A stretch of DNA of 64,000 nucleotides from Lingula anatina (lineage: Eukaryota; Animalia; Brachiopoda): positions 25,612,401-25,676,400 of the forward strand of contig CM120641.1 in assembly GCA_051362555.1 (NCBI GenBank), written 5' to 3'. The notes under the pieces were generated by a model. It was given only the letters and a program-made list of their open reading frames with translations, was not told where the DNA came from and did no database searches. This document shows positions 35,401 to 61,751 of this stretch, one piece after another (positions within the stretch are counted from its first letter, which is position 1; each line of letters starts with the position of its first letter). The position numbers were made by a program, and so were the translations under genes.

Positions 35401-38400
35401 TAGGACAACAACATGGGTTTAATCAAGCAGTGTATCACTTCCCTGTACAAGAAAAATATTCAAAGGCTTACCAAGGTAAGGGTATTTTAAAGAAAAATGT
35501 ATTCCCATGACAATTTCTGGTTTTATTACCCAAATAGAATAAATGACTTTTATAAATGTAATCTCATATGATTTCTGGTTTGCTTTCCCTAACAGAAGTA
35601 AATGACTTGTATTTGTGTTGAAATCAGTCTTTGCTTAGTTATTGACAGCATTTTTTTTAACTTTTGTTAAATTTTGTTCATTATTATTTTTTGTAATAAG
35701 AAGTGCCTTAAACACTTATTCTAATTTCACGCAGACTTTCCTGACTCTGTCTCTGGCAGATATGGCCAACAGGGTGCAGCTTGCAACACCAAGGGAAGCA
35801 GAAAAATATGTTCTTCATATGGTGAGATTTTTCTTCAAGAAAAAAAAAATAATGGGTTCATACATGTATGCAGTCTTGTGTTAATGGACTTACTGCAGAA
35901 AAGCCTATGCACTTTACTTACTTGAAACATTTCCTTTAGCTTATATTTGCTGTATTTATTAAACTTGCCTTCAGTTGGGATACCTAGTATTCTTAAATAT
36001 AACCAGGATACTTTGGGACTGGAAGCATGTTTGGGTTTGATGAAGTTTTGAGTTGGGAAGTGCCCATAAGTTTCAGACAATACAGAAGAAATTAATAGAA
36101 TTAAATTTTTTATGATACAATCATTTCTTTGAGTTACCGAGTATATGGGTATGAGTAATGCAGAGTTATTAACATTTTTTTTTCTTAGATTGAAGATGGC
36201 GAAATATTTGCCACCATAAATCAGAAGGACGGAATGGTTAGTTTCCTTGACAACCCAGAGAAGTACAACAGTGTGGACATGCTAATGCAGTTGGATCAGG
36301 AGGTAGGTTACAACCACTAGTGCTGACTTAACAGATGCTTGCTTTGAAGCATTTAACAAAAACATCCAGTGGAAATCATCTGAAGTAGCCCAATGTCTTG
36401 CAACTTATTAAAATCAAGCAAGATAAAGTGGGATTTGAAAGATAGTGGGGTCAGACATAATGGCAACTTCATATCTCTGTCTCAAGCAACAACTAGTCAC
36501 ACCAAGAAGCTCTTAATTCTTCAGTTTAAGATTTCCTTTTTTTAAAAATAATTTTCAATTAAAAAAATTACTAAAAAAAGAATCACTTATTTGTAGCTAT
36601 ATACATACATATATATATTTTTTTGAAAAATATTGCTGATCATTATCACCATAAGTCATATTTTTATTTTATTTTTGTCAAGTATTATATATTGTATTCT
36701 GTATTCTGTCATGCTGTTCAAGGTGAAACGTGAAACAGGGTATTTTGTAAAGGGAAGATGAACCCTATATTTTGTAATTGGTGTTTCTGGATTTGTCATT
36801 GGGTGCAAAATTTGATATTTTTGCACTGTTTGTTAAATAATATGAAAAAAAAGGGTGGTCTACAGATAAGATGATAAAAATAAAACAAGTTGATTTGGAG
36901 ACTGAATTGTTAGACGTTTGCTTTCAGATGCAGAAGTGCATTGATCTGGACAACAAGCTGAAGTCAATGGACAGAGACATTGCTGTCAATCCACAGTATG
37001 TGCAGAAGGCAAGTGATTAAACCCCCTTTACACTGGACAGCACCCTTTCTGTGTCCTATGTGCAACCATGAAACTGGCATCGCTTTGGTTGTAGAAAGGA
37101 GGCACACGCATTGCTTTGGTTGCAAAATGAATGCTCAATTATTGGCCAGTTGCTGGCATGTAAAGTATTAATTTTTCTTTCTCTCTCAAACGGGGCAATA
37201 CTGCAGGACACAGAAAGGATGCCGTCCAGTGTAAAGGGGACTTTATTGATTTCCCTGCTGATGTGGAAAGGGAAAAAAGGAGTAGTCAGAAATGTTTCTT
37301 GTAAATTTTATTGTAAGAATCAACCATTTCTCCTCACATTTTACCTTATTGTGTAAGAAAAGCTTAACTTTAATGTAATCAATAATTTTTAAGATGGCGC
37401 CGACCTATGGCGACACTCCTTTGAGAGCAAGCATTATTTTAGTATTTTATCTGTTTTTAACACTGTGTTTGTCCACTGCACCTGTGTTTTACTCAAGAGA
37501 GGAACTCCTAGCTATACGGAATGCCAATCGTGCCTCAAAATCCACTGTAACGGGACTAAACACAGAGCCTTCCATACAGCGCATTGTTTCCACTCAGAAT
37601 GACAGCAGTCATGACACTAAGACAAGAAGGAAAAGGGGTAAAAGAGGAGGTCATCTGGTGAGATCCAGGAAAAGAAACCAGCGATTAGCAGTACCTAGTA
37701 TCATCTTGGCTAATGTGCAGCGTTTATTCAACAAGGTTGAAGAACTGAAGTATCGCATTGCTAACTTTAGAGACTATACTGACTGTAATGTGTTTTGTTT
37801 TACGGAAACTTGGCTGAATGATGATCACACCAACGCTAGCTTAGAACCAGCAGGTTTTACTATGTTTAGAGCAGATCGTGATAGAGACATAACCGGGAAA
37901 AATCAAGGAGGAGGAGTATGTTTTCTTGTAAACGATCGATGGTGCACCGATGCCAGTGTAGTTTTTAACCGATGTTCCCCGGACATAGAGTACCTAACCA
38001 TCAAATGCAGACCATTTTATTTGCCAAGGGAATTCTCTTGTGTTATGCTGACCGGAGTATACACTCACCCCAGGGCGGACGCGAAGAAAGCAATGGCCAC
38101 TTTGTCATCGGCCATTAACTCCTACGAAAGCTCGCACCCTAATTGCTTATCCATTGTTCTCGGCGACTTCAACAAGACCAATTTGAAAACCGTTCTGCCA
38201 AATTACCGATCGTATGTCACTTTTCCGACCAGAGGCAAAAATACTCTAGATAACTGCTACTGCCCAGTCAAAGGAGCGTATAAAGCGATGAGGAGATCGC
38301 CTCTGGGGAATTCAGACCACTGCACAATTCTCTTGATTCCAGCATATAAACAAGAATTGAAAAGAGGGAAACCCGAATCTCATAACGTTAGCATTTACTC

Positions 38401-40871
38401 ACAATCAGCTATAGATAAATTGCAGGGCTGTTTTGAGTGTACGGATTGGTCTGTGTTGAAATGTGACAACAACATAGAGGATTACACCTTGACTGTGACG
38501 GAGTACATACGTTTCTGCGAGGAGATTTGTATACCAACTAAGACAGTGACCCGATATCCTAATGACAAGAGATGGATGAATAAGAACGTTCGCCAACTAA
38601 TAAAGAAGAAAGACCAGGCATTCTGCGAAAAACAGAATGACCCAGAGACCTATCGCAGAGCTAAACTCCAACTGAAGAAGGCGATCAAAGAAGCTAAGAA
38701 ATGCATGAAAAGCAAAATAGAGGAAAGCTTTAACACTAAGAACTCTAGGGAACTGTGGTCAAATATCTCCTTAATTACTAACTACAAGGGCTCAAAACAC
38801 TCTGCTGACAAAGGAGACGCGTCACTACCGGACAAACTGAATGACTTTTATGCACGCTTTGATAAAGACAATAGTTCTTCTACAACGGTTTTACCTCCGA
38901 CTTCCCAAGCTGACAATACTGAAGCAGTTCTGCTCACCATTCACCCCTGGCAAGTAAAACGGCAATTTATGCGCCTCAATGTTCATAAGGCGTCTGGGCC
39001 AGATGGAATTTCACCTCGTGTTCTCAAACTCTGTGCTGACCAACTTGCGTACGTCTTTACTGTCATCTACAACTGGTCTCTACAAATCCGCAAAGTACCA
39101 TTGCTCTGGAAGACGGCGTCTATCATCCCGGTACCAAAATCCAACCGAGTTACCAGCTTAAACGATCTTAGACCCGTGGCTCTGACTCCGGTGCCCATGA
39201 AAATTTTAGAAAAATTAGTTTTAAATTTTATTAAAGAAATTGTGCCAAAAACCTTGGACCCACTGCAATTCGCTTATCGATCTAACAGAAATGTTGAAGA
39301 TGCAGTTAATCTGTGCCTACACACTGTACTACAACACTTAGATAACAAAAACTCTTATGCAAGGATTTTATTTATTGACTACAGTTCAGCTTTTAACACA
39401 ATTGTGCCAAAAAAACTATATTTGAAACTTTTAAACCATCTTAAGCTACCTGTTTTTATTTGTGACTGGATTTTAGACTTTCTTTTAGATAGAAGACAAT
39501 CTGTTAAAGTTGGCTCATTTAGCTCAAAAATAACAGTCTTAAATACCGGTGCACCACAGGGATGCGTCCTTTCACCTTGTCTTTACTCCTTTTTTACTTA
39601 CGATTGCACTAGTGTAAGCGATGGGACTTTTCTCATGAAATTTGCGGACGATACTACGCTGGTGGGGCTAGTCACTGATAATGACGAGAGTACATATAGA
39701 GAATCTGTTGAGTCGTTGTTAAGCTGGTGCGAGAGTAATGATCTTATCTTGAACGTAGCTAAAACCAAAGAAATGATAGTGGATTTTAGAAGGAATCAGA
39801 ATGTAAAGGTACCACTCACCATTGGTAATGATGAAGTCAGTAGGGTAGAGGAATTTAAACTACTTGGTATACACCTTAACAGTAAATTGAATTGGAAAGA
39901 TAACACCGTAAAGAGTGTAAAGAAGGCACGGCAAAGACTGTATTTTTTAAGATCATTGAGAACTTTTACTGATAGTGTGCCTATTTTAGTCAATTTTTAT
40001 AGGTGTGTAATTGAAAGCATTCTAGCGTATGGAATTATAATATGGTATAGCGGAACAGCTGGGGAGGAAAGGAAGAAATTAGCAAACGTTGTAAAAACTG
40101 CAAGCAGGATTATCGGGCAAGATCTCCCCATGCTGGATGATATTTTTAAGGACAGGATGGAGAAAAGAATTGTCAACACCATGAAAGACGCTTCCCATCC
40201 TGCATCCTCTCTTTTTACTTTTTTACCAAGCAACAGTAGACTTTTAACTTTTAAAGGCAGTAAACGCTTTTTAAACAGCTTTTATCCAAGTGCAGTGACG
40301 CATTTTAATTTGATCTCAAAGCTAAATTCTTAATTAATTTATTTATTGTATTATTTTATTATTTTACTCTGTATATTAATGGAAAATGATTTCCGATTTT
40401 TATAATTGGCTAAATAAACTCTTATCTTATCTTATCTTCTGTTTTTGGGGTGCTATTTCCATAATTTATTGATTCATCTTTGTCAGTAATCTGAGAGAAG
40501 TATAATCAAGTTATAAGTAGAGTTGTTTGCAATTCTATAACATTAATTAGTAAGTTGTGTGCATGTCTATTATCACATGCAATGGTTTAGCATTTCATTC
40601 CATTTGCAAACTTTTCTTCTTTATTGATTTTCCTGGGAAGAAAATTGATATTTATATTTAAAATGCTATTAACACGTATCATTTGCCATGATAGTAATGA
40701 AAATAAAACCACCCAGCCTCCACATTTATTGATTTACAGAAATACATTAAGTTCAAAGTTACTTACTAAATGAAACAAAATCAAATTGTGCATTTTTTTT
40801 ATTTTCAGAGTGCCGGTCTTCACGATGAGGATATGCAGCCAGCATCAACTAGTAAAGGAACAGGATATTAA
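28931..40871 (+). CDS. COPS3: COP9 signalosome complex subunit 3, 426 aa, 15 exons
   Basis: Exons 28931-28985 ([19 protein letters not shown]), 32057-32186, 32467-32579, 32786-32835, 33146-33238 ([11 protein letters not shown]), 33453-33527, 33889-33993 ([12 protein letters not shown]), 34266-34355, 34670-34720, 35091-35192, 35404-35475, 35735-35821, 36189-36302 ([17 protein letters not shown]), 36928-37008, 40809-40871; 1281 nt in frame. The last intron has a GC donor (AAG|GCAAGT). Confidence 0.96.
29130..29600. mobile_element. Probable non-autonomous DNA transposon remnant in COPS3 intron 1
   Basis: Starts TAGGGTG and carries the repeated GAAATTTTGTGCACA / GAAATTTGGCACAC motifs common in invertebrate MITEs. 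Ends are not defined. Confidence 0.3.
31697..31803. repeat. Compound (ATG)n(AAT)n microsatellite
   Basis: Direct read; source of the poly-L/poly-H spurious ORF 31635..31832. Confidence 0.95.
37021..37242. mobile_element. PIF/Harbinger-like MITE, about 220 bp, at the start of the COPS3 last intron
   Basis: 35-bp TIRs CCCCTTTACACTGGACAGCACCCTTTCTGTGTCCT (37023-37057) and AGGACACAGAAAGGATGCCGTCCAGTGTAAAGGGG (37205-37239), 2 mismatches; TAA/TTA flanks. Confidence 0.75.
37391..40438 (+). mobile_element. Full-length non-LTR retrotransposon, Rex1/Babar (CR1-group) type, in COPS3 intron 14
   Basis: Begins AAGATGGCGCC; single intact ORF; short AT-rich 3' UTR with AATAAA (40413-40418) and a (CTTAT)n tail (40421-40438). 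No obvious TSD. Confidence 0.9.
37394..40333 (+). CDS. LINE ORF: APE endonuclease + reverse transcriptase, 979 aa
   Basis: APE motifs (ILANV, FTETWL, GDFN, TLDNCY, NSDH); RT motifs ([50 protein letters not shown]). N-terminal [10 protein letters not shown]...RKRGKRGG is characteristic of Rex1/Babar. Confidence 0.96.
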   Translation: MAPTYGDTPLRASIILVFYLFLTLCLSTAPVFYSREELLAIRNANRASKSTVTGLNTEPSIQRIVSTQNDSSHDTKTRRKRGKRGGHLVRSRKRNQRLAVPSIILANVQRLFNKVEELKYRIANFRDYTDCNVFCFTETWLNDDHTNASLEPAGFTMFRADRDRDITGKNQGGGVCFLVNDRWCTDASVVFNRCSPDIEYLTIKCRPFYLPREFSCVMLTGVYTHPRADAKKAMATLSSAINSYESSHPNCLSIVLGDFNKTNLKTVLPNYRSYVTFPTRGKNTLDNCYCPVKGAYKAMRRSPLGNSDHCTILLIPAYKQELKRGKPESHNVSIYSQSAIDKLQGCFECTDWSVLKCDNNIEDYTLTVTEYIRFCEEICIPTKTVTRYPNDKRWMNKNVRQLIKKKDQAFCEKQNDPETYRRAKLQLKKAIKEAKKCMKSKIEESFNTKNSRELWSNISLITNYKGSKHSADKGDASLPDKLNDFYARFDKDNSSSTTVLPPTSQADNTEAVLLTIHPWQVKRQFMRLNVHKASGPDGISPRVLKLCADQLAYVFTVIYNWSLQIRKVPLLWKTASIIPVPKSNRVTSLNDLRPVALTPVPMKILEKLVLNFIKEIVPKTLDPLQFAYRSNRNVEDAVNLCLHTVLQHLDNKNSYARILFIDYSSAFNTIVPKKLYLKLLNHLKLPVFICDWILDFLLDRRQSVKVGSFSSKITVLNTGAPQGCVLSPCLYSFFTYDCTSVSDGTFLMKFADDTTLVGLVTDNDESTYRESVESLLSWCESNDLILNVAKTKEMIVDFRRNQNVKVPLTIGNDEVSRVEEFKLLGIHLNSKLNWKDNTVKSVKKARQRLYFLRSLRTFTDSVPILVNFYRCVIESILAYGIIIWYSGTAGEERKKLANVVKTASRIIGQDLPMLDDIFKDRMEKRIVNTMKDASHPASSLFTFLPSNSRLLTFKGSKRFLNSFYPSAVTHFNLISKLNS

Positions 40872-44783: not shown

Positions 44784-46222
44784 CTTCCATTCTAACTTGT
44801 CACATTCAACAAACAAGTCTGGTAATTACTATTAGTAATCAATAGTTGAACTGCAGCAGGACAACATCTAAATGTTTTGCATGCAAACAGAATGATTGAT
44901 TACAAAAACTTGTACTGGAATTCTGAGTTTGGATTTGTATAAATACGTATATATTTCCATGACCATTTTTTGTCGTATGTCCAATGCTTTATCTTCCTAG
45001 CACCTATGCCTTATCAATAAGAGTCTGATCAATACAAAACACAACAACTCTGCTTTGATTTCTTAATCTTAATCAATTATGAATGCAAAGAAAAAATCAA
45101 TTGGACCACAAGAACAGCATCCGAACAATACACGGATTTGCACCATAATTAAATCCAATTAATACTCTTTTTGGATGGGGTCAGGAGAGAAGTGAATTCA
45201 CCCTTCCATTTTCTACTTATTTATGCTACCATAGACTAAAAGTGAACACATTTTAGGCTGTGCATCATTATTTCATAATAAAGTTAAATAAATATAAAAT
45301 AATATAATTTGTTTATTTGCAAAATAAAGTTATTCAAGGACTTGTACACAGCCTTTAAAAATACATTATGTAATAGAGGATAAAAGTTATTAAGGAAAAA
45401 AATGTCAAGCAATGACTCAACAGTTGAATCATCTCAGCAATCTTATTCCTTTTATCAAAAAAGCTGATTTCATGTCACAGTAAATTATACTTTGTGTTAT
45501 AAAGATTTAAAATGAATGTCATATACCAGAGCCTGAGCAGGGGGACGTTAGATGCTTCATTGATCATTTCTGTCTCGACTGTTTAATCACTTGTTGATAT
45601 TGATTTCTTCTAAATGATTTGTTCAATTATTTAACAAGTACTATGGCTTCCATCTGTCAAATGTCAATTCACAGCTAAATAACATAATGTTAAGTATTCA
45701 GATTGCGTATGGAAATCAGATAAGGTACTAAGTGGTATGTGCAAATTGATTTCAGTGACAAAAAACTGTCAAAATAATAAAATTATGCCTTTATTTTTAT
45801 CTTTCATCAGAGACATTTCAGTAAGTATAGATAAAACCAATATATAATTTTATTTAACAAAGTACATATGAAAATCACCCTTTTTGCACCACTTTAAATA
45901 AATATACTGCACCACACAATGTACAGTTGTTACTGTCAAAGAAATTGGCCAACTGGATGCAGTTTCTAGCATATCTGGACATAAAGGCCAACAGCAGATG
46001 GCCATTTTTTCTAAGATGTTTCTATGGGGTCACGTTCACAAAGCTATACCTAAATTTTAAAGTTTTCATGCCGTATATCTTGATATTTTGCAAACTGTCT
46101 GACCCATTTTTTCCATTCCAAGGTTGTGTTACTATGAGATGGGGATTTCCCTTATAACATGAAATGTGCTCAGAGACAAAAATAAAAATATTAAATTAAA
46201 AAATTAAAAAAAACTGCAACAC

Positions 46223-49200
46223 AGCAGACAGAGTAAGACTGAATGGCTTAACTGGAGCTGGCATCCTACCCTACAAACACAAAGAGGAAACACACAACAT
46301 TTAATTCAACTTCACAGATGCCAGTTTCCAGATGCTATTGGGGCTACAAGATTGCATACAGCTGAAATTGTTACAGCTGAGAAAGAGCATATATAGCATG
46401 AATACAACACTATACATGTTCTCAGAATGCGGGAAAAACAAATACTAGCTAATATTTAAAACACCATGTCAGACCAAGCAGCAATCTGCAAAGCCTTCAA
46501 TGAACTCCTTCAAAGGTACAGGCTTTCTATTCTGCCAGATGTATGCACTGACTGGGCCAGGTTGTCACAAGAAGAACAGGCTGAACATGGCAAAATCTAC
46601 AATTTTCTTCTGTGGCTTGCATCTCCTTGTTAATCCAGCAGAAACTACCACTAAATGAATTGTTACATTTAAACAGCAGAGTGATGTCAGTAGTCAGGGT
46701 GCTGCTGGAAGGCCAGACACCGCTTCTTTCACCAAAAGGGCTGAATCAGGAATAGTGAAGCTGGTTTGAACATCCTGCAAGGCCTTTGCAAGAGGCGCTG
46801 ATGAAAAGAATGGTTGCTGGAGGGACTTCAACACCCACATGATGGATACGTGCAACATTAAACCCAAGTTGGTTCCTTTAAGAGGAAATCGGTTTAAAGT
46901 GGTGTTTTTGGAAGCAGCACTTGTATTTCACTACTCTGAGAAGGCCAGAGACTTCTTGGAGCAGGTACATGGGGCACCCAAATTGCTGCTGAGAGCGTTG
47001 CTTGCAGACCTGATGACTCTACTTTACATAGCAGGAGCTAGAACCATGGGGTTCCTCTTGTGGAGGCTTATAGAGAGAAAAGGGCAAATCCTTGAAATAA
47101 GCAAAAATTACACCATCCTCAAGGACTTCTTCACCAAAATGGCATTAGATACATCGCCCATACTCAATGGAGAAAGCCCCTTCCCTCATGAAGTCAAGTC
47201 TCCTGATGTGGTGCTTACACATCTCTTAGAAGAAAGTGACAACAATCTAAGACAAAGCAGACAGAGTGAGACTGAATGGCTTAACTGGAGACGGCATCCT
47301 ACCCTACAAACACAAAGAGGAAACACACAACATTTAATTCAACTTCACAGATGCCAGTTTCCAGATGCTGTTGGGGCTACAAGATTGCATACAGCTGAGA
47401 AAGAGCATATATAGCATGAATACAACACTATACATGTTCTCAGAATGCGGGAAAAACAAATACTAGCTAATATTAAAAACACCATGTCAGACCAAGCAGC
47501 AATCTGCAAAGCCTTCAATGAACTCCTTCAAAGGTACAGGCTTTCCATTCTGCCAGATGTATGCACTGACTGGGCCAGGCTGTCACAAGAAGAACAGGCT
47601 GAACATGGCAAAATCTACAATTTCTTCTGTGGCTTGCATCTCCTTGTCAATCTAGCAGAAAGTACCACTAAATGAATTGTTACATTTAAACAGCAGAGTG
47701 ATGTCAGTAGTCAGGGTGCTGCTGGAAGGCCAGACACCCCTTCTTTCACCAAAAGGGCTGAATCTGGAATAGTGAGGCTGGTTAGTACTGCCAGCAAGGC
47801 CTTTGCAAGAGGCACTGACAAAAAGAATGGTTGCTGGAGGGACTTCAACATCCACATGTTGGACACATACAACATTACACCCAAGTTGGTTCCTTTCAGA
47901 GGCAATTGGTTCAATGTGGTGTTTTTGAATGCAGCATTTGTATTTCACTACTCTGAGAAGGTCAGAGACTTCTTGGAGCAGGTACATGGGACATCCAAAT
48001 TGCTGCTGAGAGCGTTGCTTGCAGACCCAATGACTCCACTTTACAAAGCAGGAGCTAGAGCCATTGGGCTCCTCCATAAATTAGTTGTATCTCACCTGTG
48101 GAGGCTTATATAGAGAAAAGGGCATATCCTTGAAATAAGCAAAAATTACACCCTCCTCAATGACTTCTTCACCAAAATGGCATTAGGTACATTGCCCATA
48201 CTCAATGGAGAAAGCCCCTTCCCTCATGAAGTCAAGTCTCCTGATGTGATGCTTACATATCTTTTAGAAGAAAGAGGAAACACACAACATTTAAGTCAAC
48301 TTCACAAATGCCAGTTTCCAGATGCTATTGGGGCTACAAGATTGTATACAGCTGAAATTGTTACAGATGAGAAAGAGCATATATAGCATGGATACAACAC
48401 TATACATGTTCTCAGAATGTGGGGAAAACAAATACTAGCTAATATTAAAAACACCATGTCAGACCAAGCAGCAATCTGCAAAGCCTTCAATGAACTCCTT
48501 CAAAGGTACAGGCTTTTCATTCTGCCAGATGTATGCACTGACTGGGCCAGGCTGTCACAAGAAGAACAGGCTGCACATGGCAAAATGTACAATTTCTTCT
48601 GTGGCTTGCATCTCCTTGTCAATCTAGCAGAAAGTACCAACAAATGAATTGTTACATTTGAACAGCAGAGTGATGTCAGTAGTCAGGGTGCTGCTGGAAG
48701 GCCAGACACTGCTTCTTTCACCAAAAGCACTGAATCTGGAATAGTGAGGCTGGTTAGTACTGCCAGCAAGGCCTTTGCAAGAGGCACTGACAAAAAGAAT
48801 GGTTGCTGGAGGGACTTCAACATCCACATGTTGGACACATACAACATTACACCCAAGTTGGTTCCTTTCAGAGGCAATTGGTTCAATGTGGTGTTTTTGA
48901 ATGCAGCATTTGTATTTCACTACTCTGAGAAGGTCAGAGACTTCTTGGAGCAGGTACATGGGGCACCCAAATTGCTGCTGAAGGCGTTGCTTGCAGACCT
49001 GATGACTCTACTTTACATAGCAGGAGCTAGAACCATGGGGTTCCTCTTGTGGAGGCTTATAGACAGAAAAGGGCAAATCCTTGAAATAAGCAAAAATTAC
49101 ACCATCCTCAAGGACTTCTTCACCAAAATGGCATTAGATACAACGCCCATACTCAATGGAGAAAGCCCCTTCCCTCATGAAGTCAAGTCTCCTGATGTGG

Positions 49201-49521
49201 TGCTTACACATCTCTTAGAAGAAAGTGACAACAACTAAGCATCAAACAAATTCTACAGTATGTAATGATGGCATGGGCCACCTACATAGCAAAGGCCATT
49301 TCAGACCATCTTTTTTGACCTCTGCGAAGCATCTGCAGAAGTCGAGGAAGAGACAGCATCTGCCTTAAATCATAACAAGTTCCCTGAGTGGGTGTTTGTC
49401 CTCCTAGATCATCTGGTGAAGGCAAGGCCCAATGCCTCAACCCTGACCAATGAGGCCTATATGATGTTTACATTAAACAAGACTGGAGAATGGTTAAAGG
49501 CAAAGACACCAGAGGGCCAGG
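46223..49521 (+). pseudogene. Three tandem ~1-kb copies of a degenerate DDE transposase fragment (CxxH-type, hAT-like; superfamily uncertain) plus its downstream part
   Basis: Units start at 46223, 47256 and about 48270. Motifs KNTMSDQAA, NFFCGLHLLVNLAE (CxxH), FRGN(R/W)FNVVF, HNKFPEWVF..LD..RPNAST. Stops and frameshifts are present. Confidence 0.85.
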
Positions 49522-50130
49522 ATCGTTATTGGTCAACTTTGAGAGTTTGTCAGTATCATCAGTTGTCAACGCCACCTTAAGGGAAATATGAGCTAGCAGC
49601 TTCAAGACAGCATTGGTGCCCCTCTCCACACAAGGAATGAGATAAACAACTTATTGTTTGGGCAAAATGGACTAGCATCTGCAGACAATGAAGTCATATT
49701 TGATCTCCGCCATGAATTTGTGCTAGAACATATCCAGAGAACAGTACCCACATTTGAAATATATTACTCTCAGAGGATCTATCCACTTCTAAAGCAAAAC
49801 CTCCAAACTGTTATGAAATGCCCAGAAGTCAACTCAGGGTGGACTAATAATAATGCAGAATCAATTAACCAAATTATGAAAATGAAGGCAGAGTGGAAAC
49901 TTCAAGATATTCCTATGGTCATCTGCTCACTCCACCAGCTGGTCCAAGGGCAATACGTGGATGTAGAAAGGGCATTTTTGGTCGAGGACAATTCAAACTG
50001 GATGCCAAATTTTCTAAGTATGCAGTGGACCAGACAGTGTGGAACTCAAAGACATCTGAACAGAAACAAAGACACATGATGAGATTTTTGAAAGCACCAA
50101 AACTGTCGATCAAAATGCCCAAACCGTAAA
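49522..50130 (+). pseudogene. MULE/Mutator-like transposase fragment
   Basis: CQRHLKGN*...LFGQNGLASAD...WTNNNAESINQIMK; CxxH plus TNNxxES around the catalytic E; frameshifted. Confidence 0.7.
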
Positions 50131-50139
50131 TGGAAACCT

Positions 50140-50581
50140 ATCATGAACTTTTCTGAGAATTTCCAGATCTTGTGAAAACTACTGGTACCCTACCGGGAGA
50201 GTATAGTATTTGTATTGACGAGTCTGTACCACCAGTTGTACACCCCGCATGCAAACTTCCTGCCACAGTCAAGCCCAAGGCAATAGCTAAATTACGTGAG
50301 ATGGAGGAAAACTGCTATATCACCAAAGTCAAAGAACCCATTGATTGGGTTAGCTCGATGATCATGTTGATACGCAATGATAAGATTCGCATTTGCATTG
50401 ACCCAAAAGACCTAAACATGGTGATCAAGCGCGAACACCACCCTATGAAAACCATAGAGGAAGTGGCCCTTGGTATCCCAAACGAGAAAGTGTTTTCATT
50501 TGGATGCGAAATTGGGATTTCTACAGATAAAGCCCGACAAGCGGTCCTCGTACTTGACAACATTCAATACACCCAGTATCG
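50140..50581 (+). pseudogene. Ty3/Gypsy reverse transcriptase fragment
   Basis: GTLPGEYSI..PVVHP..KVKEPIDWVSSM..KIRICIDPKDLNMVIKREHHPMKTIEE, frameshift into LDAKLGFLQI..SSYLTTFNTP. Confidence 0.88.
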
Positions 50582-50582
50582 T

Positions 50583-50898
50583 AGAAGTTAAGGAAGAGAC
50601 AGCATCTGCCTTAAAACATAACAAGCTCCCTGAGTGGGTGTTTGTCCTCCTAGATCACCTGGTGAAGGCAAGGCCCAATGCCTCAACCCTGACCAATGAG
50701 GCCCATATGATGTTTACATTAAACAAGACTGGAGAATGGTTAAAGGCAAAGACACCAGAGGACCAGGGTCATATTCTAGAGAAGGCAAGATGTGAGTGTC
50801 CTGTAACAAAAGTTAAATTTTGGGAGAGGTTGGTGGAAATTGAGAGAGAGAATAGTGCCAAACTGAAATCCAAGCAAGAAGCCATGGAAAGGAAGTGA
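50583..50898 (+). pseudogene. Second copy of the DDE transposase C-terminal fragment
   Basis: 50583-50767 repeats 49337-49521 (EETASALKHNKLPEWVFVLLDHLVKARPNAST...), then continues to a stop at 50898. Confidence 0.85.
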
Positions 50899-51053
50899 CC
50901 CATGTTGCAGTGGATCTGATCCCCAAATCAACTGTGATATATATTGGAAAACCTATAGGCGTTTGAACTTTTCCAGTACCACATACAGCAAAGATGGAGA
51001 GACCAGTAGGCTAAGTATCTTACCAGCAGATATTTTAAATATTCTACTGGAAG

Positions 51054-51350
51054 TTGACCAAGTTGTCTGAGGTAACGAAGTTTTCTTACTTGAAATCTCT
51101 CTTGGTTGGAGAGGCTGCAGGTGTTATTAAAGGGTTGTCGCTGACTAGCAAAAAGTATAGAGAGGCGTGTCAGTTGCTAGGAGTGAGGTTTGGTCGTAGG
51201 GAACTCATTATTTTCAGTCACATTCAATCCCTAATGACCCTTGAGGGTCAATGTAGAAATAGTTTATCAAAATTACACAGTCTGTTAGATCAGGTACATG
51301 TTCATGTGCGCAGTTTGAGTTCATTAGGTATTGAAGGCAATAGATTTAGA
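51054..51350 (+). pseudogene. BEL/Pao gag fragment (DUF1759-like)
   Basis: LSEVTKFSYLKSLLVGEAAGVIKGLSLTSKKYREACQLLGVRFG. Confidence 0.85.
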
Positions 51351-51634
51351 ACTGCAAAGTTCGCATTACACTGGGCTTACAAAGACGAAGCCATGCCATT
51401 GGACAGATTTTTTTGATTGACGCTTTGATTGACGAACAGAGGTCATGTAAAAAGCTGCTTGCCAACCGAACGCATCAAGATATCTGCCGTATTGTTTTCT
51501 TCAGAATCGTCATTTATAAATGAAGAAGGGGAGTTGAGTAACAGTTCAGGGGAAGAGGATTTTGCCAATCCAGACACAATTGACTCTGAACTGCAAAATA
51601 CTGAGGTATGTGTGTAGTGGGCATGTCAGTGTGG

Positions 51635-52242
51635 GGTTTCCGGTTGTTCAGTAAAGATGGCTTACAGTAGAACACGTGTCTGTGTCATTCTATTTCATTC
51701 TGCAGAAATACTTGACCATTAATCTTGGTCAGTACTGTACATGGTGTCAGAAGTGAAAATGCCCAAGTTCAGTCCACCAGAGCAATTTAACTTCTCATCG
51801 CCAAGTGATAGGCCGGAAGGGAAGCAAAGATCTTCGCAGTATCGACTAGCCACAAAGCTAAACGGTGAAGATCACGAGGTGCAAATTAGTGCATTGATAT
51901 ACTCAATGGGCAAAGAGGCTGAGCACATCTACAGTTCGTTTAATTTACCATGTGAGGGCTCGGGAAACGATGCAGATGGTGACAAGGAAAAAACACACAT
52001 TACGTATGAACAGGTAATGGAATGTTTCGATAATCACTTCATCCCAAAAACTAACGTGGTGCATGAGAGAGCTAAATTTCATCACCATACCCAAGGCAAA
52101 CATGAAGGGTTTGAACAGTATTTAAGATCCTTGTACGAAATTGCAGAACTTTGTAACTTTAAGGACAGAGAGGAGCATCTTAGAGATCAAACTGTGTTTG
52201 GAATTAAAGACAGGAGACTTAGTGAAAAACTACAGCTTTTAC
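51635..52242 (+). pseudogene. Gypsy LTR 3' end, primer-binding site and gag fragment
   Basis: LTR-like end ...TGTACA (51736-51741) abuts PBS TGGTGTCAGAAGTG (51742-51755, tRNA-Leu type); gag MPKFSPPEQFNFS..QISALIYSMGKEAE..FDNHFIPKTNVVHERAKF..LRDQTVFGIKD. Confidence 0.85.
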
Positions 52243-52400
52243 CAGGGCACCGTATCTCGAAAGCTTCCCTTATGGCGAGCTTGCACAAGCATGGCGAGCG
52301 TGCGCTATCCCATATCTTGAAAGCTTCACAAATCGCGGCCGTGCGCTAATGGCGAAATCACCATTACTTTCGAGGCTATTATTTGCGGCGATACAAACTA
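52243..52400. mobile_element. Possible Harbinger-like terminal fragment
   Basis: Abrupt switch to GC-rich CAGGGCACCGTATCTCGAAAGC with internal repeats (GAAAGCTTC, ATGGCGAGC). No partner TIR seen. Confidence 0.35.
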
Positions 52401-52779
52401 GTGGCAAAGGCCTCTGCATATGCATAATTCATCATTTTAATGTGTCTTTCATGTAATTAAACATGGCCACAAGTATGGGTTGCTAGTCATAATAGCATAT
52501 AACAAAAGCTATAACAAATACATGGAAACTTATAATAGATTAAATCACTCGGTACCCCTGATAGAAAAACTTGCGGTACACATTCACGTGAAGTATTTGA
52601 TACATCATTTTATATTTTCTGATGAATATAATTAATCTGTGTTGTCTGTTGATAATAATCATAAATTTTAAAAGTGTCATTTTCTACACAAAATGAAAAA
52701 GCAGAAACAAAGCATTCGGTCGCACCGACAAATTATGAAGCATAAGTATGTATTATGTGTTTATTTATGTGCTCCCCTA

Positions 52780-53740
52780 TTCATGCCATCCACCTACGTC
52801 TTCATTTATAAATGCTTTTCGGAGATTTGCAGCAAGGAGATCACTTCCTATGAAAATGATTAGTGAAAACACAACAACCTATCATTGGCTGCCAATGAAA
52901 TCACTAAACTTTTCAAAATGAAGATGTACATCATTATTTGAGTCAAAACAGAGTTAAGTGGGAATTCACTCCTAAAAGAGCACCTTGGTTTGGTGGCTTT
53001 TGGGAAAGATTGATTGGTCTGGCAAAGAACGTAATGAAAAAGACATTAGGAGGAGCTGAATCACGTTAGACAAATTTCCAGCAATAACATTGGATATAGA
53101 AGCAGCATTAAATGACTATCCCATTACATACGTCAATGATGACGAACCTTTAACTCCATCAATGCTTTTAAATGAATGTCAAATCAAAACACTACCTTAC
53201 CCACTGACTGATGAGGATGAAAAGTTGGATCCAACGTATACACAATATAGCAAAATCACTAAAGAACACTTAACAAAAAGATAGAAACACGTAAATGAGG
53301 TTAATGTACAGTTCATATAGAGATAGACCTCTGAATATCTCACTGTACTGAGAGAAAGAGAGAACATGAATGGAGCTAGTCAAAACTCTACTTAAGTTGG
53401 AGGCATATAGTACTGATTCATGAAGATATAAAACCTAGTCTTTTGTAGAATTTAGGACTTGTTACACATCTAAGCTATGGCAACGATGGAATAGTGCTAT
53501 CAGTAATATTGAAAACAAAGTATGGCACAACAAATTGCCCTATCAGGAAACTTTATCCTCCTGAAATTTCTGTTACGGAATTCTGAAACTGTCCCCGACC
53601 TAAGAGAGGTAACCTTAGCCAAAGAAAATGCTGGTAAAAACATTAACATTCCAACCTGTAACACAAGACATGGGACCCAGGAAGCAAGGAAAACATCACT
53701 AGATGAGCTCAAGAACTTATATGAAAATGAACTAAGATAA
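52780..53740 (+). pseudogene. BEL/Pao integrase and C-terminal fragment
   Basis: FINAFRRFAARRSLPMKMISEN...VKWEFTPKRAPWFGGFWERLIGLAK...IEAALNDYPITYV..EPLTPSMLL; several stops and frameshifts. Confidence 0.88.
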
Positions 53741-53814
53741 CTTGTATATGGAACTATATACTAGACTGCTTAAGGTGGGGCTGTACCCAAATAGGCTTAT
53801 AACGCGCTGTCAAT

Positions 53815-54100
53815 ATGGGTAAAAGAAAGAGAAAAGTAAACACTTAATTTTCACAAGAACATAAGAGATTTTTAAGTGCAAGTCAAAAAGGTGGATGGGA
53901 AAGGCCAAAGAATGCAGAGGACAAGAAGGAATTACTACTGAGAGGTGTAAGTGCTAGAAAACTGAAAGAAGCAGACATCGTGTATGAGAGAGACGAAGAA
54001 GTTGTCACACCCGAGCCGGAAGGATACCATATTTGGCACTGCAGCCAGTTGCAACAAAGTGTCAGTTTGTGCCATTCATGCAGAGAAGTTAGTCTTAGAT
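53815..54100 (+). pseudogene. Possible N-terminal fragment of another DNA transposase (Mutator-like zinc-finger region)
   Basis: Basic start MGKRKRK, acidic linker, then EGYHIWHCSQLQQSVSLCHSC (GYxI...CxxC). Weak family signal. Confidence 0.35.
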
Positions 54101-54184
54101 AGTAGTTTAGATCAATAAAAGGCTACAGATCAATCACTCTTTATTAAATTTTTCACCCCTGAACCGTACCCTCCCACATACACT

Positions 54185-54620
54185 ATCTGAACAAGACTAC
54201 TTTGAATGCGGTCACTGGAGTTCTAAAGAAGCATTTTGCACGCTGTGGTGTGCCAATCACCATTGAATCAGATGATGGACCTCAGTTTTCATCTAGTCAG
54301 TTTGATCAATTCACACAGAAATGGGGTGTGAAACATATTAAGTCAAGTCCACATTACCCAAAAGCCAATGGAAGGCAGAATCAGCAGTGAAAACCATAAA
54401 GCACTTTATGTATAAATGTATTGAGAGCAACCAGGATCAGTATGAAGCTTTAATGGAACTGAAAAACAACAGATAGAAAACTGGACTGAGTCCATATCAA
54501 ATGGTACTCGGGGAAACCTGTACGCACATTCTTACCATCCATTGTGAGGTAGAACAAGGATCCAGGAGTGTTGGAAAAGATAAACAGGAGAAATGAAGCA
54601 GTGAAGAAATATCATACAAG
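54185..54620 (+). pseudogene. Ty3/Gypsy integrase core fragment
   Basis: LKKHFARCGVPITIESDDGPQFSS..WGVKHIKSSPHYPKANG, frameshift into KAESAVKTIK. Confidence 0.88.
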
Positions 54621-55579
54621 GTGTACGTGACAAATGGACTCGTACCGCATGCACAAAATCTTGTCTTTGTGCAATAATGAATTCTGAAATTGCCATAACA
54701 TACCAGTTAAGCTTTTTTTTTTGGGGGGGGGGGGCATTTTGGAAATGATGACTACTGCATAAGGATCATCTGTTACTGATTCTATATCCAGATATGCTAG
54801 TAACAGTATCCATGGCAATCTAGGCACATTTCCTGCTTTATCACAAAAATGAACGATCGTGATTAATAACAGTTGTACTAACAATCCAATAATCATGTTA
54901 AAATACCAGAGATTGTTGATCCTTAGCTAATAATCTCCATTTCTTTAATAATAATTTCCTCTGAAAAATGATTATCCATCACCTTTTTCTGAGAGAACAA
55001 TGATATGAAGCAGCCTTGCTGTGTCTGAGAATACATAGCTCTCAGTGTAGCTAGCAGGCTATACAAAAAGTTTAATGCAGTTTCCTAAAAAATATAATGG
55101 AACACATTGAGGTAATACTATATTACAGAATGCAACTTATTAGATATATCCACATCAATGTAACATATGTATCACTGTCATGTCAACATCCACCATGTAC
55201 TTTACATTGTAGATAGTGTGTTGTAGTAATTGTTGGATCATACCCTTGTAAAATATTCTTGAAACAATAAATAAATAAATAATTTTAACATTTATCCCAA
55301 TTCTTTGCCCTTATATTCTGTGCCTCCCTCCCAATGAATGCAGGAACTAATATCTGCATAATGACCAGCTTTTTGATTCCTGGGATTCATGGTGCAATTA
55401 GCTTCCTTCTGTTCAAAAAGAATGGGTGTGATTTGAAAAATGTTATTTCCTTTGGCTCACAACCTTTATTCTTTAGTACAAACAACAGTCATGACAGAGC
55501 ATATCACTTCTCCTCTATGACCTCCTCCAAAGTGCTCTGTAAAAATTAAGGCTCACAGAGTGACAGCTGAGGGTGGATG

Positions 55580-57744
55580 TCACCAATCGTATTCTTCTTC
55601 AAACTTGTCAAAGTCCCTGTCTGTAAATACAGAACCTTCCTCCTTTACCACGGGTTCTGGGGGTCTGTCCTTGGCGAGTTTGCCACGGTGCTGCTCCATT
55701 ATCTGTAAATAATGAATTATAATCACTGCTCAACAAACTGTGTCAATACCTCTGATAACTATGAAAAACTTGGAGAAAAGAAAAAACTTATTTTTTATTC
55801 CTACAGCCTCAAGAAATGAATTATAATTTGCAAAAAAAATTTTCATTTAAGATGTTTTTAAATAATTTTTATGCAACTCATGATGCTGGAATAATCTGGT
55901 TTTAAAAGTATTTGGCAAAACAGAAGCAGAGTTTATTCTTCATGAATATTACTTCTTCATCACCTAGCATTCTACATTTTTGTATGTAAAACGTTCCTGA
56001 GATATTCCCATAGTGTCATTTCTGGGATCTGGTTTATTAAGCAGTTGGTTAAATATGAGAAGAGAAGTTTATTTTTCATTAATATTGTTACCCGATTACC
56101 TGATATTATACAGACCTGTGACAGCAAATTTCCCCCAAAAATATTCTCAGTAACAGTTTATATAGAGACATAATAAGGGCATATTCCCAGAGCTTTTAGA
56201 TCGATCTATCCCCGCGGGGAGTCTCACTAGATTACTGTCAGATAATCCGGCTTAAATGTCCGTCCCGTCTACAACAAACTGTAAGGGGGTAATTAACTTT
56301 CGTGCCCGCTCGGCTGACAGCTATTTAGCGTGAACCCCCAGGGAGTTAGGTTGACCTAAAGTAGATCGATCTAAGCTCTGGGAATGGGGTCTAAAAGTTT
56401 TGTTTACTGACCTTTTCCACCACAGATGAGTGAGGTTTGTGTGAGTTGGAGAGTAACTGTAGAAAATACAAATTGTCAGTGGTATTGTCCTTTGGTTTGT
56501 TTTTCCTGTACTCTTCTGTAATACAAGAACACATTCATTATATAAATTGTTGGCCACAATAAAGCTAAATGTGATGTGAATACGTTCTCTTTATACCTTT
56601 GGCATGAGAAAACTAATTGAATTCTAATAAAAAAGACCATTTATAGTGAAACATAAAACTTGATCAAAGGGAATCATACAAAGCATTAGAAATATTACAT
56701 GTTATAGATATTTGATTAAGTCAGTGTCATTCACAGTGAGCCAATCTAAAAAAAATGGGATTGTTTCTTCATAAACTTGTTATAGATATGACAATAAATA
56801 CTCACCAACTACAGACTTAAGTTTCTTTCCCTTTACAGTCACTTTGTTTTTATTTGGTTTTTGAGTCAATCGCTCTTTCTGCTTTTTGACACCTTTTTTA
56901 TTAGTGCCCAGGAGGTTTCTAGAACTTGTGCTATCTGACTTCTCTGATTTTCCTTTCTTTGGGCTATTCGAGTCTGAAAAAAATTGAACATATATTCATT
57001 TACATGATTTTTAAACAATACATTGAACTGATTTTAAACTACACCTCTATCTACTTAATTTCCACACAATGCACTAGAAGAAATACTGTCTGCATGTTTG
57101 CAGGCATCAAAAAGGATAATAGCATTTTGTGACTTACAGCTGCGAGTTTGTGATTGTAATCACCAAATTAATCGTGCTAACTTTTTACATACATTTTACG
57201 GGGGCGTCTCGATAGTCCGAAGGTTCATTGGTCCGAAGGTTCATTGGTCCGAAAAGTGGTAACATTTTCATCGATTTTTTAATCAAGGGTTCATTGGTCC
57301 GAAGGTTCTATAGTGAACATTCGGACCAATGAACCTTCGGACTATTGAACCTTCGGACTATCGCTACGGCCCCCATTTTACGTGAAATTATAATTTTGTG
57401 TTTGCAACGGAGATATAATTACGACTAATTAGATAAACAGATTGTACAATTACTTTCTGTACATGTTGGCAGTATCTGGCACTGCAGTTCTATACACAGT
57501 TGTAAGTGGGATCATTGTACGTTTACTTCTATCCCACTAATTAAAGGGCAAGCAGTGTACAAAGTACTATAAAGACTACCTACTCCGTCCAACTTGGGGG
57601 GGTGGGTTCACTTTAACCTTTTTGAGTACTCATATCCTTTTCTGAGTCAAAATGCATTATGAAATTACTTTATTACTTACCTTGAAGTGTTTCTAAGTCA
57701 TCCTTAAATAGTTCTAATCCCTTTCTTACAAGAGATGCAGACAT
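55580..57744 (-). CDS. RPS19BP1: Active regulator of SIRT1 (AROS) / RPS19-binding protein 1, 152 aa
   Basis: Exons 57681-57744 (MSASLVRKGLELF), 56806-56973, 56412-56515, 55580-55702 (EGSVFTDRDFDKFEEEYDW*); 459 nt in frame. Both termini match human AROS (MSAALLRRGLELL; EGTVFTEEDFQKFQQEY). AATAAA on the minus strand near 55465-55470. Confidence 0.88.
56183..56385. mobile_element. MITE (about 200 bp) in RPS19BP1 intron 3
   Basis: TIRs ATTCCCAGAGCTT(TT)AGATCGATCTA ... TAGATCGATCTAAGCTCTGGGAAT. Confidence 0.75.
57201..57373. mobile_element. MITE with 9-bp TSD and 15-bp subterminal repeats in RPS19BP1 intron 1
   Basis: CATTTTACG duplicated at 57192-57200 and 57374-57382; inverted arrays of GTCCGAAGGTTCATT / AATGAACCTTCGGAC; GG...CC ends. 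Confidence 0.85.
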
Positions 57745-59507: not shown

Positions 59508-61751
59508 CGGTAAAGTCTTGAAAATTTCGTCGTTCTTGAAAATTTCGTCGACAGACGATTTTCCGCCGAGGTAATTTTTTTCCCCTTGAAAACTTCGTCG
59601 ACCTTGAAAATGAGGTACTCAATAATTTTTGAAAAGTTCGTCACCAAATATGGCCGCGTTGTCCAGCTCAAACATGAAGGTAATGCGTCAGTTGATTCAA
59701 GACAATCATACGATCAGGATATCATTGCCGATAACACTCTCAATGGGAGATAGGAACAATAGTGCGCCCCTGCGAGCGGTTACTCACAATATAAGTGGTT
59801 AAGATGTGAATCCCCGTTCTTAATTGCGGGAACATCGGCCTTTTGTCTAAATAGTTTCATTACTATTACCTGGCTCAAGGTGCGTTATCAAGCCGGCAAA
59901 TAAAAGTCACAGGCCGCGGCTTTGTCATTTGTAACGCCGTTATTGTTATCGGCGGCTGTCCTAAATGAGGAAGACACAATGAAAAATCAAGATATTATCT
60001 CGAAGGGAAATGTACCCGTCACTTCTATTCATGTCCATGTTCAATTTAGGACCATTTAACAATTACCTGGCTCATCCATGGAGATCGTTCGCAATGCGAA
60101 TGGGACGAGATGGCAATTTTCATAGCTTCAGCAGAGAATCTTTCGCGTAATATTGTCAACAGATCGTTCGCGATCCAAACGAGACAAGAAGAAAATTTTC
60201 ATATTTATAGCAGACTCCGTTCGCGTAAGATCATCAGCGGGAGATCGTTTGCGATCCGAGCGAGACGAAAAGGCAATTTTCATGTCATCATCGGGAGATC
60301 GTTCGCGATGTAAGCAAGAATGAAATGCAATTTTCAAATTAGTGCAAGGAACTTAGTTTGCAAAAGATCGTCAGCGGGAGATCACTATTCTAACCCCCCC
60401 CCCCTTTGAATTTAATAAATAATATATATATATTTAATAAATAATATATATATATATTTTATATATATTTTCATTTTATCTTAACCCCCCCCTTCCCCGC
60501 TCATGGCATATCTTCGGCGGAGAATCGTTCGCGTAAGATAATCATCGCGGGATCGTTTGCGATGTAAGCAAGAATGAAATGCAATTTTTATATTAGTTCA
60601 AGGGATTTAGGGAACTTCGTTAACGGAAGATCGTCAGCGAGAGATCATTATTTCACTCTCCCCCCCCCCCCCCAGACACAGACACACTTTGGATTTAAAA
60701 AATATCTTTTTCATTTTATCTTTAAACAGCCCCCCCTCCCCCGCTCACGGTATATATTCGGCGGAGAATCGTTCGCGTAATATCCTCAGGACTTTGTTCG
60801 CGTTAGATCATATCAGAGGGAGATCGTTCGCGATCCTAGCTTGACGTAAAGGCAATTTTCATATCATCGTCGGGAGATTGTTCGCGATGTAAGCAATAAT
60901 AAAATGCAGTTTTCATATTAGTACAAGGAACTTAGTTTGCAAACGATCGTCAGCGGGAGATCATTATTTTAACCCCCCCTCCCCTTTGAATATTATAAAT
61001 AATATATATTTTTAATTTCATCTTTAACCCCCCCCCCCTTCCCCGCTCACGGCATACATGTATCTTCGGCGAAGAATCGTTTGCGTAATAAATCGCCAGG
61101 ACTTTGTTCGCGTAAGATCGTCAGAGGGAGATCGTTCGCGATCCGAGCGAGACGAAAAGGCAATCTTCATATCATCATCGGGAGATCGTTCAGTTTTCAT
61201 ATAAGTTCAAGAAACTTAAATTGCGGAAGATCGTCTGCGGGAGCAATTATTTTAACTCCCTGTAAATTTTTAGGAAGTTACAGATGGTACTTTTAGAAGG
61301 CCTGACATTCAATCCTGGGAAAAGCCCTGCAGGCAACAAACGTTGCCAAGTGCATAATTTTTTTTAAATATGTCGCGGCCAGGTTATAATGCAAGGAGGC
61401 AATTAAGCTTATCTTGATCCTTCTCCTCTATCAGGAGGTATTTTTCTTACCGAGAAGATAATTCTCAACACATTTTCGGGTACAGTAAGTTAAATTTAAC
61501 TTAATCGAGATGCAGTAATAAATATATTATTATTTACCACCAGAAAACGACTTAGGAAGTAGTTTTAAATATCCCACAATATAGGAGGGTCAAAGATAAC
61601 AGTCGCTAAGGATAAAAGCCCAAAGACCGGATTTTTGAAAATTTCGTCATACCCAGGAGTCGGGGAGAGGTAATTTTGAAAAATTAGTCGGATTTACACA
61701 ATTAAAAATATTAATTAATTTTTAAGCGACGAAATTTTCAAGACTTTACCG
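59508..61751. mobile_element. 2.2-kb non-autonomous Tc1/mariner(pogo)-type element with internal tandem repeats
   Basis: Perfect 25-bp TIR CGGTAAAGTCTTGAAAATTTCGTCG / CGACGAAATTTTCAAGACTTTACCG flanked by TA on both sides; no transposase ORF. Confidence 0.88.
60075..61260. repeat. Composite CpG-rich tandem repeat (GGAGATCGTTCGCGAT / GAATCGTTCGCGTAAGAT subunits, poly-C tracts)
   Basis: Recurrent blocks at about 60240, 60530, 60770-60960 and 61075-61250. Confidence 0.8.

Follow-up and report, generated by a model that had tools for sequence, protein, structure and literature searches.

Several clusters producing PIWI-interacting RNAs (piRNAs) have been described in which transcription of a host gene runs on into the transposable elements (TEs) lying behind it. 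In mouse, human and hamster, the piC-DoG loci presented by Konstantinidou et al. (2024; PMC11615739) consist of dense antisense TEs directly behind the poly(A) site of a host gene, and are copied into an extended RNA from the same strand with the host coding exons intact. By that account, sense and antisense TE contents behind mouse genes are about equal (~15% each), read-through included, and only the productive piC-DoGs are antisense-enriched; uni-strand antisense-TE clusters are also reported from a slug (PMC11615739). Similarly, the mosquito read-through core clusters described by Qu et al. (10.1101/2022.08.22.504762) are intergenic, start at the end of an upstream gene, give polyadenylated antisense RNA, and are regarded as a trap. 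In flies, antisense insertions in a 3' untranslated region (UTR) are reported to suffice for piRNAs (PMC13226689). The insertions described there are those of Tirant in the Drosophila genes Fs(2)Ket and cactus, with KoRV-A in koala cited as a further case, and a host promoter drives the antisense TE within a minor long 3' isoform. Here we describe a candidate locus of this kind in the brachiopod Lingula anatina, an island of transposon remains at 46219-54640 of a 64-kb window (the whole stretch of DNA analyzed, positions 25,612,401 to 25,676,400 of contig CM120641.1), located between a GT92 glycosyltransferase gene and RPS19BP1 (AROS). We lean towards reading it as transposon debris facing in a single direction, whose antisense RNA is a putative piRNA precursor against several TE families.

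Transposon remains (hAT-like, MULE-like, Gypsy, and BEL) could be assigned over ~95% of the island. At least five elements of four superfamilies are represented, and about half of the island is of DNA transposon type, i.e., hAT-like, MULE-like, or resembling miniature inverted-repeat transposable elements (MITE-like). None of the pieces is a complete element, as an earlier note on this DNA had claimed. From left to right they are listed below, where depths refer to X6, a DNA run from a study independent of the assembly (single-copy depth ~96; likeness threshold 93%), and LTR, PBS and RT denote long terminal repeat, primer binding site and reverse transcriptase, respectively.

46219-49545, plus strand: three tandem hAT-like transposase copies (46219-47251, 47252-48270, and 48271 on), copy 3 being a mosaic of copies 1 and 2
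49549-50117, plus strand: C-terminal fragment of a MULE-like transposase, 65% identical to residues 583-726 of L. anatina LOC106166782 (P0001)
50142-50582, plus strand: N-terminal fragment of a Gypsy RT, with 35 polyproteins matching 50142-50501 (best E 1e-18)
50583-50898, plus strand: C-terminal part of a hAT-like transposase, its first 188 bp repeating 49337-49524
51030-51340, plus strand: BEL/Pao gag fragment, with DUF1759 at 51054-51296 (1.5e-16)
51341-51610, no strand assigned: low-copy 270-bp piece with a short acidic plus-strand frame and no TE family match (X6 depth 29)
51611-52231, plus strand: Gypsy 5' end with a probable LTR (51611-51741), PBS (51742-51755), and gag start codon at 51759; 4384 relatives at E<=0.001
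52232-52727, orientation not readable: high-copy non-coding repeat, MITE-like (X6 depth 4300-6200 vs. 96 for single copy), with loose ends at 52727 in runs X6 and X10
52728-53781, plus strand: BEL/Pao integrase, DUF5641 and 3' region, frameshifted (DUF5641 1.5e-6; P0104 matches 52796-53577)
53782-54182 (right end within about 4 nt), plus strand: probable BEL 3' LTR, TG..CA, with AATAAA near its end, delimited by eye and preceded by a purine tract at 53772-53780
54183-54640, plus strand: Gypsy integrase core fragment (rve 4.6e-8), matching residues ~1040-1200 of Gypsy polyproteins

All pieces with a readable orientation lie on the plus strand, in agreement with the earlier note. When 161 fetched TE proteins were compared with all 64 kb by tblastn, every one of the 309 high-scoring segment pairs (HSPs) was on the plus strand and within 46430-54593, although the baits were derived from the island pieces and make only those families visible. 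In a six-frame Pfam scan, DUF1759, DUF5641, and rve were found in plus-strand frames only, and none of 15 minus-strand frames contained a TE domain; in total, plus-strand TE sequence makes up ~85% of the island and minus-strand TE sequence none of it. Outside the island no TE domain was found among 149 frames (the 148 longest stop-free frames without that of a LINE, a long interspersed nuclear element, plus one RPS19BP1 exon), a background for which Pfam is insensitive to short decayed TE pieces. The island is also richer in G+C and A-skewed, with an AT skew of +0.14 compared to -0.02 to +0.075 in non-overlapping windows of equal size.

Both flanking genes are on the minus strand, as had been proposed, and any RNA reading out of RPS19BP1 would be antisense to these pieces. 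The relevant features are:

55580-57744, minus strand: RPS19BP1 (AROS) coding exons, with Pfam AROS on exons 56783-56995 and 55586-55702
55465-55470, minus strand: first AATAAA after the RPS19BP1 stop codon, at which RNA depth is unchanged
54641-55464, transcribed on the minus strand: single-copy spacer (RNA depth 1.1-2.4; X6 depth 91-99)
43117-44786, minus strand: GT92 glycosyltransferase gene, two coding exons (Pfam Glyco_transf_92 1e-32; exon borders by eye)

The island thus starts 0.8 kb behind the first AATAAA of RPS19BP1, which is expressed and spliced (nine reads link its last exon to an exon at 56414). The earlier note had predicted a minus-strand, TE-antisense RNA over the island, and such RNA was found, at low depth, in two runs from two studies. 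We used stranded RNA-seq from X12 (polyA) and X15, two of nine listed RNA runs and ~6% of each; DNA and RNA reads alike were mapped to 46220-55720. With 87 (X12) and 102 (X15) mapped reads, 96 and 100% of the island RNA depth, respectively, runs in the direction of the RPS19BP1 last exon, which excludes DNA contamination and sense TE transcription. RNA is present in 17 of 27 (X12) and 23 of 27 (X15) island bins, at a mean depth of 1.0 and 1.3, equal to 0.27-0.28 of the last-exon bin. Depth does not fall at the first AATAAA (X12: 8 at 55347 vs. 10 at 55670; X15: 7 at 55432), the spacer bins at 54779-55412 have no RNA in the opposite direction, and neither joints nor pile-ups of read ends occur among those listed. 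The high-copy repeat is almost without RNA (0 in X12; 0.3 and 1.0 in X15), which indicates that reads from other loci are not inflating the island signal. The antisense RNA is likely a read-through extension of the RPS19BP1 mRNA, with a composition of 33% U and 25% A over the island.

The preferred reading would work as follows. The first poly(A) signal of RPS19BP1, being weak, would be passed by RNA polymerase, which would run on for at least 9 kb, into a region where elements would have landed one inside another. Pieces facing away from the gene would have been retained for the silencing piRNAs that arise from their antisense RNA, and those in sense would have been lost. Deletions would have trimmed each element to 0.3-1.4 kb, keeping the locus small between two genes, and the U-rich RNA would be cut into piRNAs with 1U. 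That plain read-through behind mouse genes has no antisense bias favors such a function.

Several observations weigh against this reading. The RNA level is very low (~0.55-0.94 reads per kb per million records), and 10 (X12) and 4 (X15) of the 27 island bins are empty; the X12 gaps include five bins over hAT-like copies 2-3, whose reads were possibly assigned to copy 1 instead, as well as four at 52243-53510. Short reads cannot show a single molecule passing from the gene into the island. AATAAA on the minus strand is not depleted beyond what composition predicts (2 seen vs. 2.6 expected), and further minus-strand AATAAA sites are present at 45790-45849. Live targets are also in question, as most pieces are present in X6 at only ~1-3 times single copy and the closest complete MULE shows 65% protein identity. 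Finally, with five independent pieces and an antisense bias of 0.75, an all-antisense arrangement would have a probability of 24%.

The number of independent pieces depends on how the island was built. The earlier note had treated the pieces as unrelated; however, 46219-49240 is made of three copies of one stretch, and 49337-49524 recurs at 50583-50770. The hAT-like copies within 46219-49240 are 91-95% alike and represent one stretch triplicated in tandem, in which copy 3 tracks copy 2 at alignment columns ~240-730 and copy 1 at ~755-1050, a mosaic that points to unequal exchange or conversion. Differences between the copies are neutral, with ratios of nonsynonymous to synonymous differences (pN/pS) of 0.7-1.1 in most segments, none of them significant. 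Since none of 10 comparisons showed a synonymous excess, we counted the copies as one element, and rejected an origin from separate active elements. The 188-bp direct repeat (49337-49524/50583-50770) flanks the MULE and Gypsy-RT insert.

Instead of internal fragments only, as the earlier note had it, the island contains two LTR-like ends. The first (51611-51759) is a TG..CA segment followed by the PBS and the gag start codon, recognized by eye, and an X10 contig match starts exactly at 51611. In the second (53772-~54180), a TG..CA segment containing AATAAA comes after a purine tract, also recognized by eye, in agreement with contig breakpoints and with an X6 depth of 224, 2.5-fold that of the adjacent BEL bins (85-88). 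Judged from their sequence, both segments look like true LTR ends. Further, the Gypsy and BEL domains, which had been taken to be out of natural order, are compatible with nesting, i.e., Gypsy RT [BEL gag [Gypsy LTR-gag] BEL integrase-LTR] Gypsy integrase. When read as nests, the BEL gag/integrase and Gypsy RT/integrase pairs are each in natural order, and by this order each pair possibly derives from one element, with ~500 residues absent between the Gypsy RT and integrase pieces relative to P0040 and P0066. Triplication and nesting reduce the independent pieces to 5-7, and the probability of co-orientation by chance, given before as ~1.6% for seven fragments, becomes 1.6-6% for either strand and 0.8-3% for the antisense strand. 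The LTR-like ends, the nesting-compatible order, the recombined triplication, and the neutral decay together indicate that insertion followed by deletion and unequal exchange suffices, and a special process that captures internal fragments, as had been proposed in place of nested transposition, is unneeded. We found nothing relevant in the literature on nesting in flamenco.

These same features would be expected if nested transposons had simply accumulated in a gap with weak transcription, forming an ordinary heap whose polarity arose because sense insertions that end or mis-splice RPS19BP1 or GT92 were purged, and whose RNA is leaky read-through or intron without meaningful piRNAs. We regard this as a serious alternative, though a less probable one. 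The LTR-like ends, the nesting-compatible order, the neutral decay between hAT-like copies, and the low RNA level all fit it, and an antisense bias caused by termination is reported as established in human genes (PMC3517506), which would make five co-oriented pieces unremarkable. GT92 also has a candidate 5' UTR exon on the minus strand (45528-45656) with an acceptor, whose upstream exon was not located, so the island could be in a long intron, and a shared RPS19BP1-GT92 transcript is possible. On the other hand, for an intron in a polyA library, 0.27 of the exon depth would be a high value, and the intact LINE in a nearby COPS3 intron, apparently in sense, indicates that purging of sense insertions is not general here. 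As noted above, antisense bias is lacking in mouse where read-through is plain. Such a heap also leaves unexplained why all short TE coding remains of the 64 kb cluster in 8.4 kb, and why each family was trimmed.

Besides the nests, a 57-bp degenerate inverted repeat brackets the island, where the earlier note had found no paired terminal inverted repeats. Its arms are:

45944-46000, no strand assigned: left arm, pairing with 54767-54819
54767-54819, no strand assigned: right arm, with a 30-nt core 87% complementary to the left (E 9e-6)

Among 385 random window pairs, an equally high score was reached by only 2. The predicted duplex of the two arms in one RNA has an energy of -56.8 kcal/mol, reached by none of 498 random pairs, a comparison chosen after the fact. 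The repeat may represent the ends of a founding element; old termini, a local inverted duplication, and chance are all conceivable origins. This raises another explanation, in which a single old DNA transposon, either Pack-type or a hAT-like element that had expanded internally, carried the whole island as its cargo, with the inverted repeat as its termini, and the polarity of the island was inherited from this element or set within it. In addition to the bracketing repeat, the hAT-like frame is present to either side of the MULE/Gypsy-RT insert, and of the 8 bases outside the 30-nt cores 6 are shared (by eye), an incomplete match for a target-site duplication. However, X6 depth over the right arm region is that of single-copy DNA (91-96), neither arm has a further match in the window or any match in 32 related loci, and the 18 of these loci that were examined have no convincing terminal repeats. 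An enclosing element alone would leave both the antisense transcription and the orientation of later inserts unexplained. We consider this explanation quite improbable, although it can be combined with the antisense piRNA-precursor reading as its founding insertion. For Helitrons, no RepHel domain is present in the Pfam matches, while Helitron ends (5' TC, 3' hairpin, CTRR) were not searched for.

The earlier note had also raised the possibility that the block is a multicopy unit or an assembly chimera; so far as testable, the block is not a high-copy unit and X6 carries its junctions. At 93% likeness, from which older, more diverged copies escape, most pieces except the non-coding repeat have ~1-3 times single-copy depth in X6, which argues against a high-copy mobile unit. 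A chimera, or a collapse or expansion of repeats, might be suspected because the hAT-like copies are mosaic and because no contig spans the whole island among those listed, which are part of a set with 473 further pieces. Nevertheless, an X6 contig (54033-55720) joins the BEL LTR-like end, the Gypsy integrase, the spacer, and the RPS19BP1 last exon at single-copy depth, another (51921-52281) crosses the junction between gag and repeat, and a joint in X6 represents a shortened variant of the hAT/MULE junction. The hAT-like X6 depth of 274 is 2.9 times single copy, for which the triplication alone accounts. Further, 0.40-0.65 of the sequence words of 47001-57000 are present in nine runs of three studies (the best of which may be the source sample), more than the 24% that the flank could give, and 0.12 in a tenth. 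At 93% likeness, X10 has no coverage of the spacer or of the RPS19BP1 exon, and is thus uninformative on the presence or absence of the island. Overall, an assembly error is highly improbable.

Compared to Drosophila flamenco, which has its own promoter and contains mainly Gypsy endogenous retroviruses (ERVs), the island likewise has one transcribed strand and TE remains in antisense orientation. Flamenco is described as hundreds of kb in pericentromeric heterochromatin, whereas the island is small, gene-dense in its surroundings, and mixed in content. The earlier label "flamenco-like" is thus better replaced by the piC-DoG or read-through class, since the island measures 8.4 kb, is embedded between genes, consists of DNA transposon remains for about half of its length, and seems to receive its transcription from the upstream gene. 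It differs from the piC-DoGs as described (PMC11615739) in being boxed in by the next gene, compared to >50 kb for the top clusters, in its DNA transposon half compared to L1/ERV, in its invertebrate host, and in that its piRNAs are putative. The mosquito clusters are reported as enriched for non-retroviral viral elements (10.1101/2022.08.22.504762), and none were recognized in the island. The Tirant and KoRV-A cases are single recent insertions proposed to be transient (as cited in PMC13226689), whereas the island has at least five rearranged elements of four superfamilies. Enrichment for Gypsy, hAT, and BEL has been reported for mollusc piRNA clusters (PMC6128900), and no brachiopod piRNA cluster was found in literature titles or abstract openings.

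If the antisense piRNA-precursor reading is true, read-through piRNA clusters, which to date have been reported from mammals and mosquitoes, would also occur in a lophotrochozoan. It could then be followed how one 3' UTR trap becomes a cluster, which the fly work left open. With <10 kb and single-copy flanks, the locus is small enough to be read whole in many individuals. The locus adds to the known cases by its strand-calibrated RNA, which can be linked to a named upstream gene, by its small size, and by a history that can be read from the sequence; should it yield no piRNAs, it would be an ordinary transposon heap of little interest. A more far-reaching proposal, which we consider unlikely, is that the island is a self-pruning transposon catalog in the 3' extension of a housekeeping gene, in which a genic trap, of a kind proposed to be transient, developed into a durable source of piRNAs against multiple families. 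Of each invader only a short antisense sample would have been kept, unequal exchange would tune the dose for each family, and the flanking arms would mark the bounds of the precursor.

Family assignments differ in strength. Hermes, a hAT transposase, has a DDE fold with a CxxH insertion domain. The hAT-like family has conserved TMSD, CGLH, and later E motifs, and the predicted fold of a full-length relative (predicted local distance difference test score, pLDDT, of 71) best matches Hermes (Z 10.0, root-mean-square deviation 4.5, 174 residues; 8.9 for the next row). A first fold model (pLDDT 52) matched nothing, the second model had no Foldseek match, no Pfam hAT match was found, and profile matches were to coiled coils only; we therefore regard the "hAT-like" label as fair, not proven. 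A word search found no long relatives among 787 candidates, while a near-length search recovered 10, and in a tblastx comparison with hAT-like relatives 4 of 369 HSPs were outside the island. In the full-length relatives (~1040 aa; L006:2102-5218, L008:923-4042, L012:298-2337), a coiled coil at the N terminus is combined with a Spin/Ssty Tudor-like domain at the C terminus (E 9e-11 to 7e-5). They have no Pfam transposase match or clear terminal repeats, and represent a poorly described transposase clade with a possible histone-reader domain. Atlas searches returned eukaryotic clusters only. For the MULE-like piece, the MULE Pfam match of P0001 (4.7e-4) is under the curated cut-off. The Gypsy RT piece has no PDB sequence match, and many relatives of the Gypsy gag piece, among the 4384 at E<=0.001, are gag-pol proteins with RT, RNase H, and integrase. 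The PBS is presumably of the tRNA-Leu type; the window contains no tRNA gene for comparison.

Some further features were observed in and around the island. AATAAA on the plus strand is rarer in 46219-54640 than in shuffled sequences (1 vs. 6.1; 5 of 300 shuffles), perhaps merely due to coding origin. In the RPS19BP1 3' region, X6 carries indel variants of 230 bp (55084-55313) and 18 bp (55432-55449), and an RPS19BP1 intron contains a small MITE-like element (57190-57372) with 16-nt repeats in both orientations. The LINE at 37379-40440, on the plus strand and apparently sense in a late COPS3 intron, is probably young, with an intact-looking 984-aa frame (37379-40333; endonuclease and RT, RT E 1.8e-27) and a short TCTTA-repeat tail near 40420; its exact protein (984 aa) is absent from the searched protein collection. 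Finally, 60080-61260, in the first intron of a plus-strand gene starting near 59651, contains several diverged (67-80%) copies of a ~320-bp unit with internal sub-repeats.

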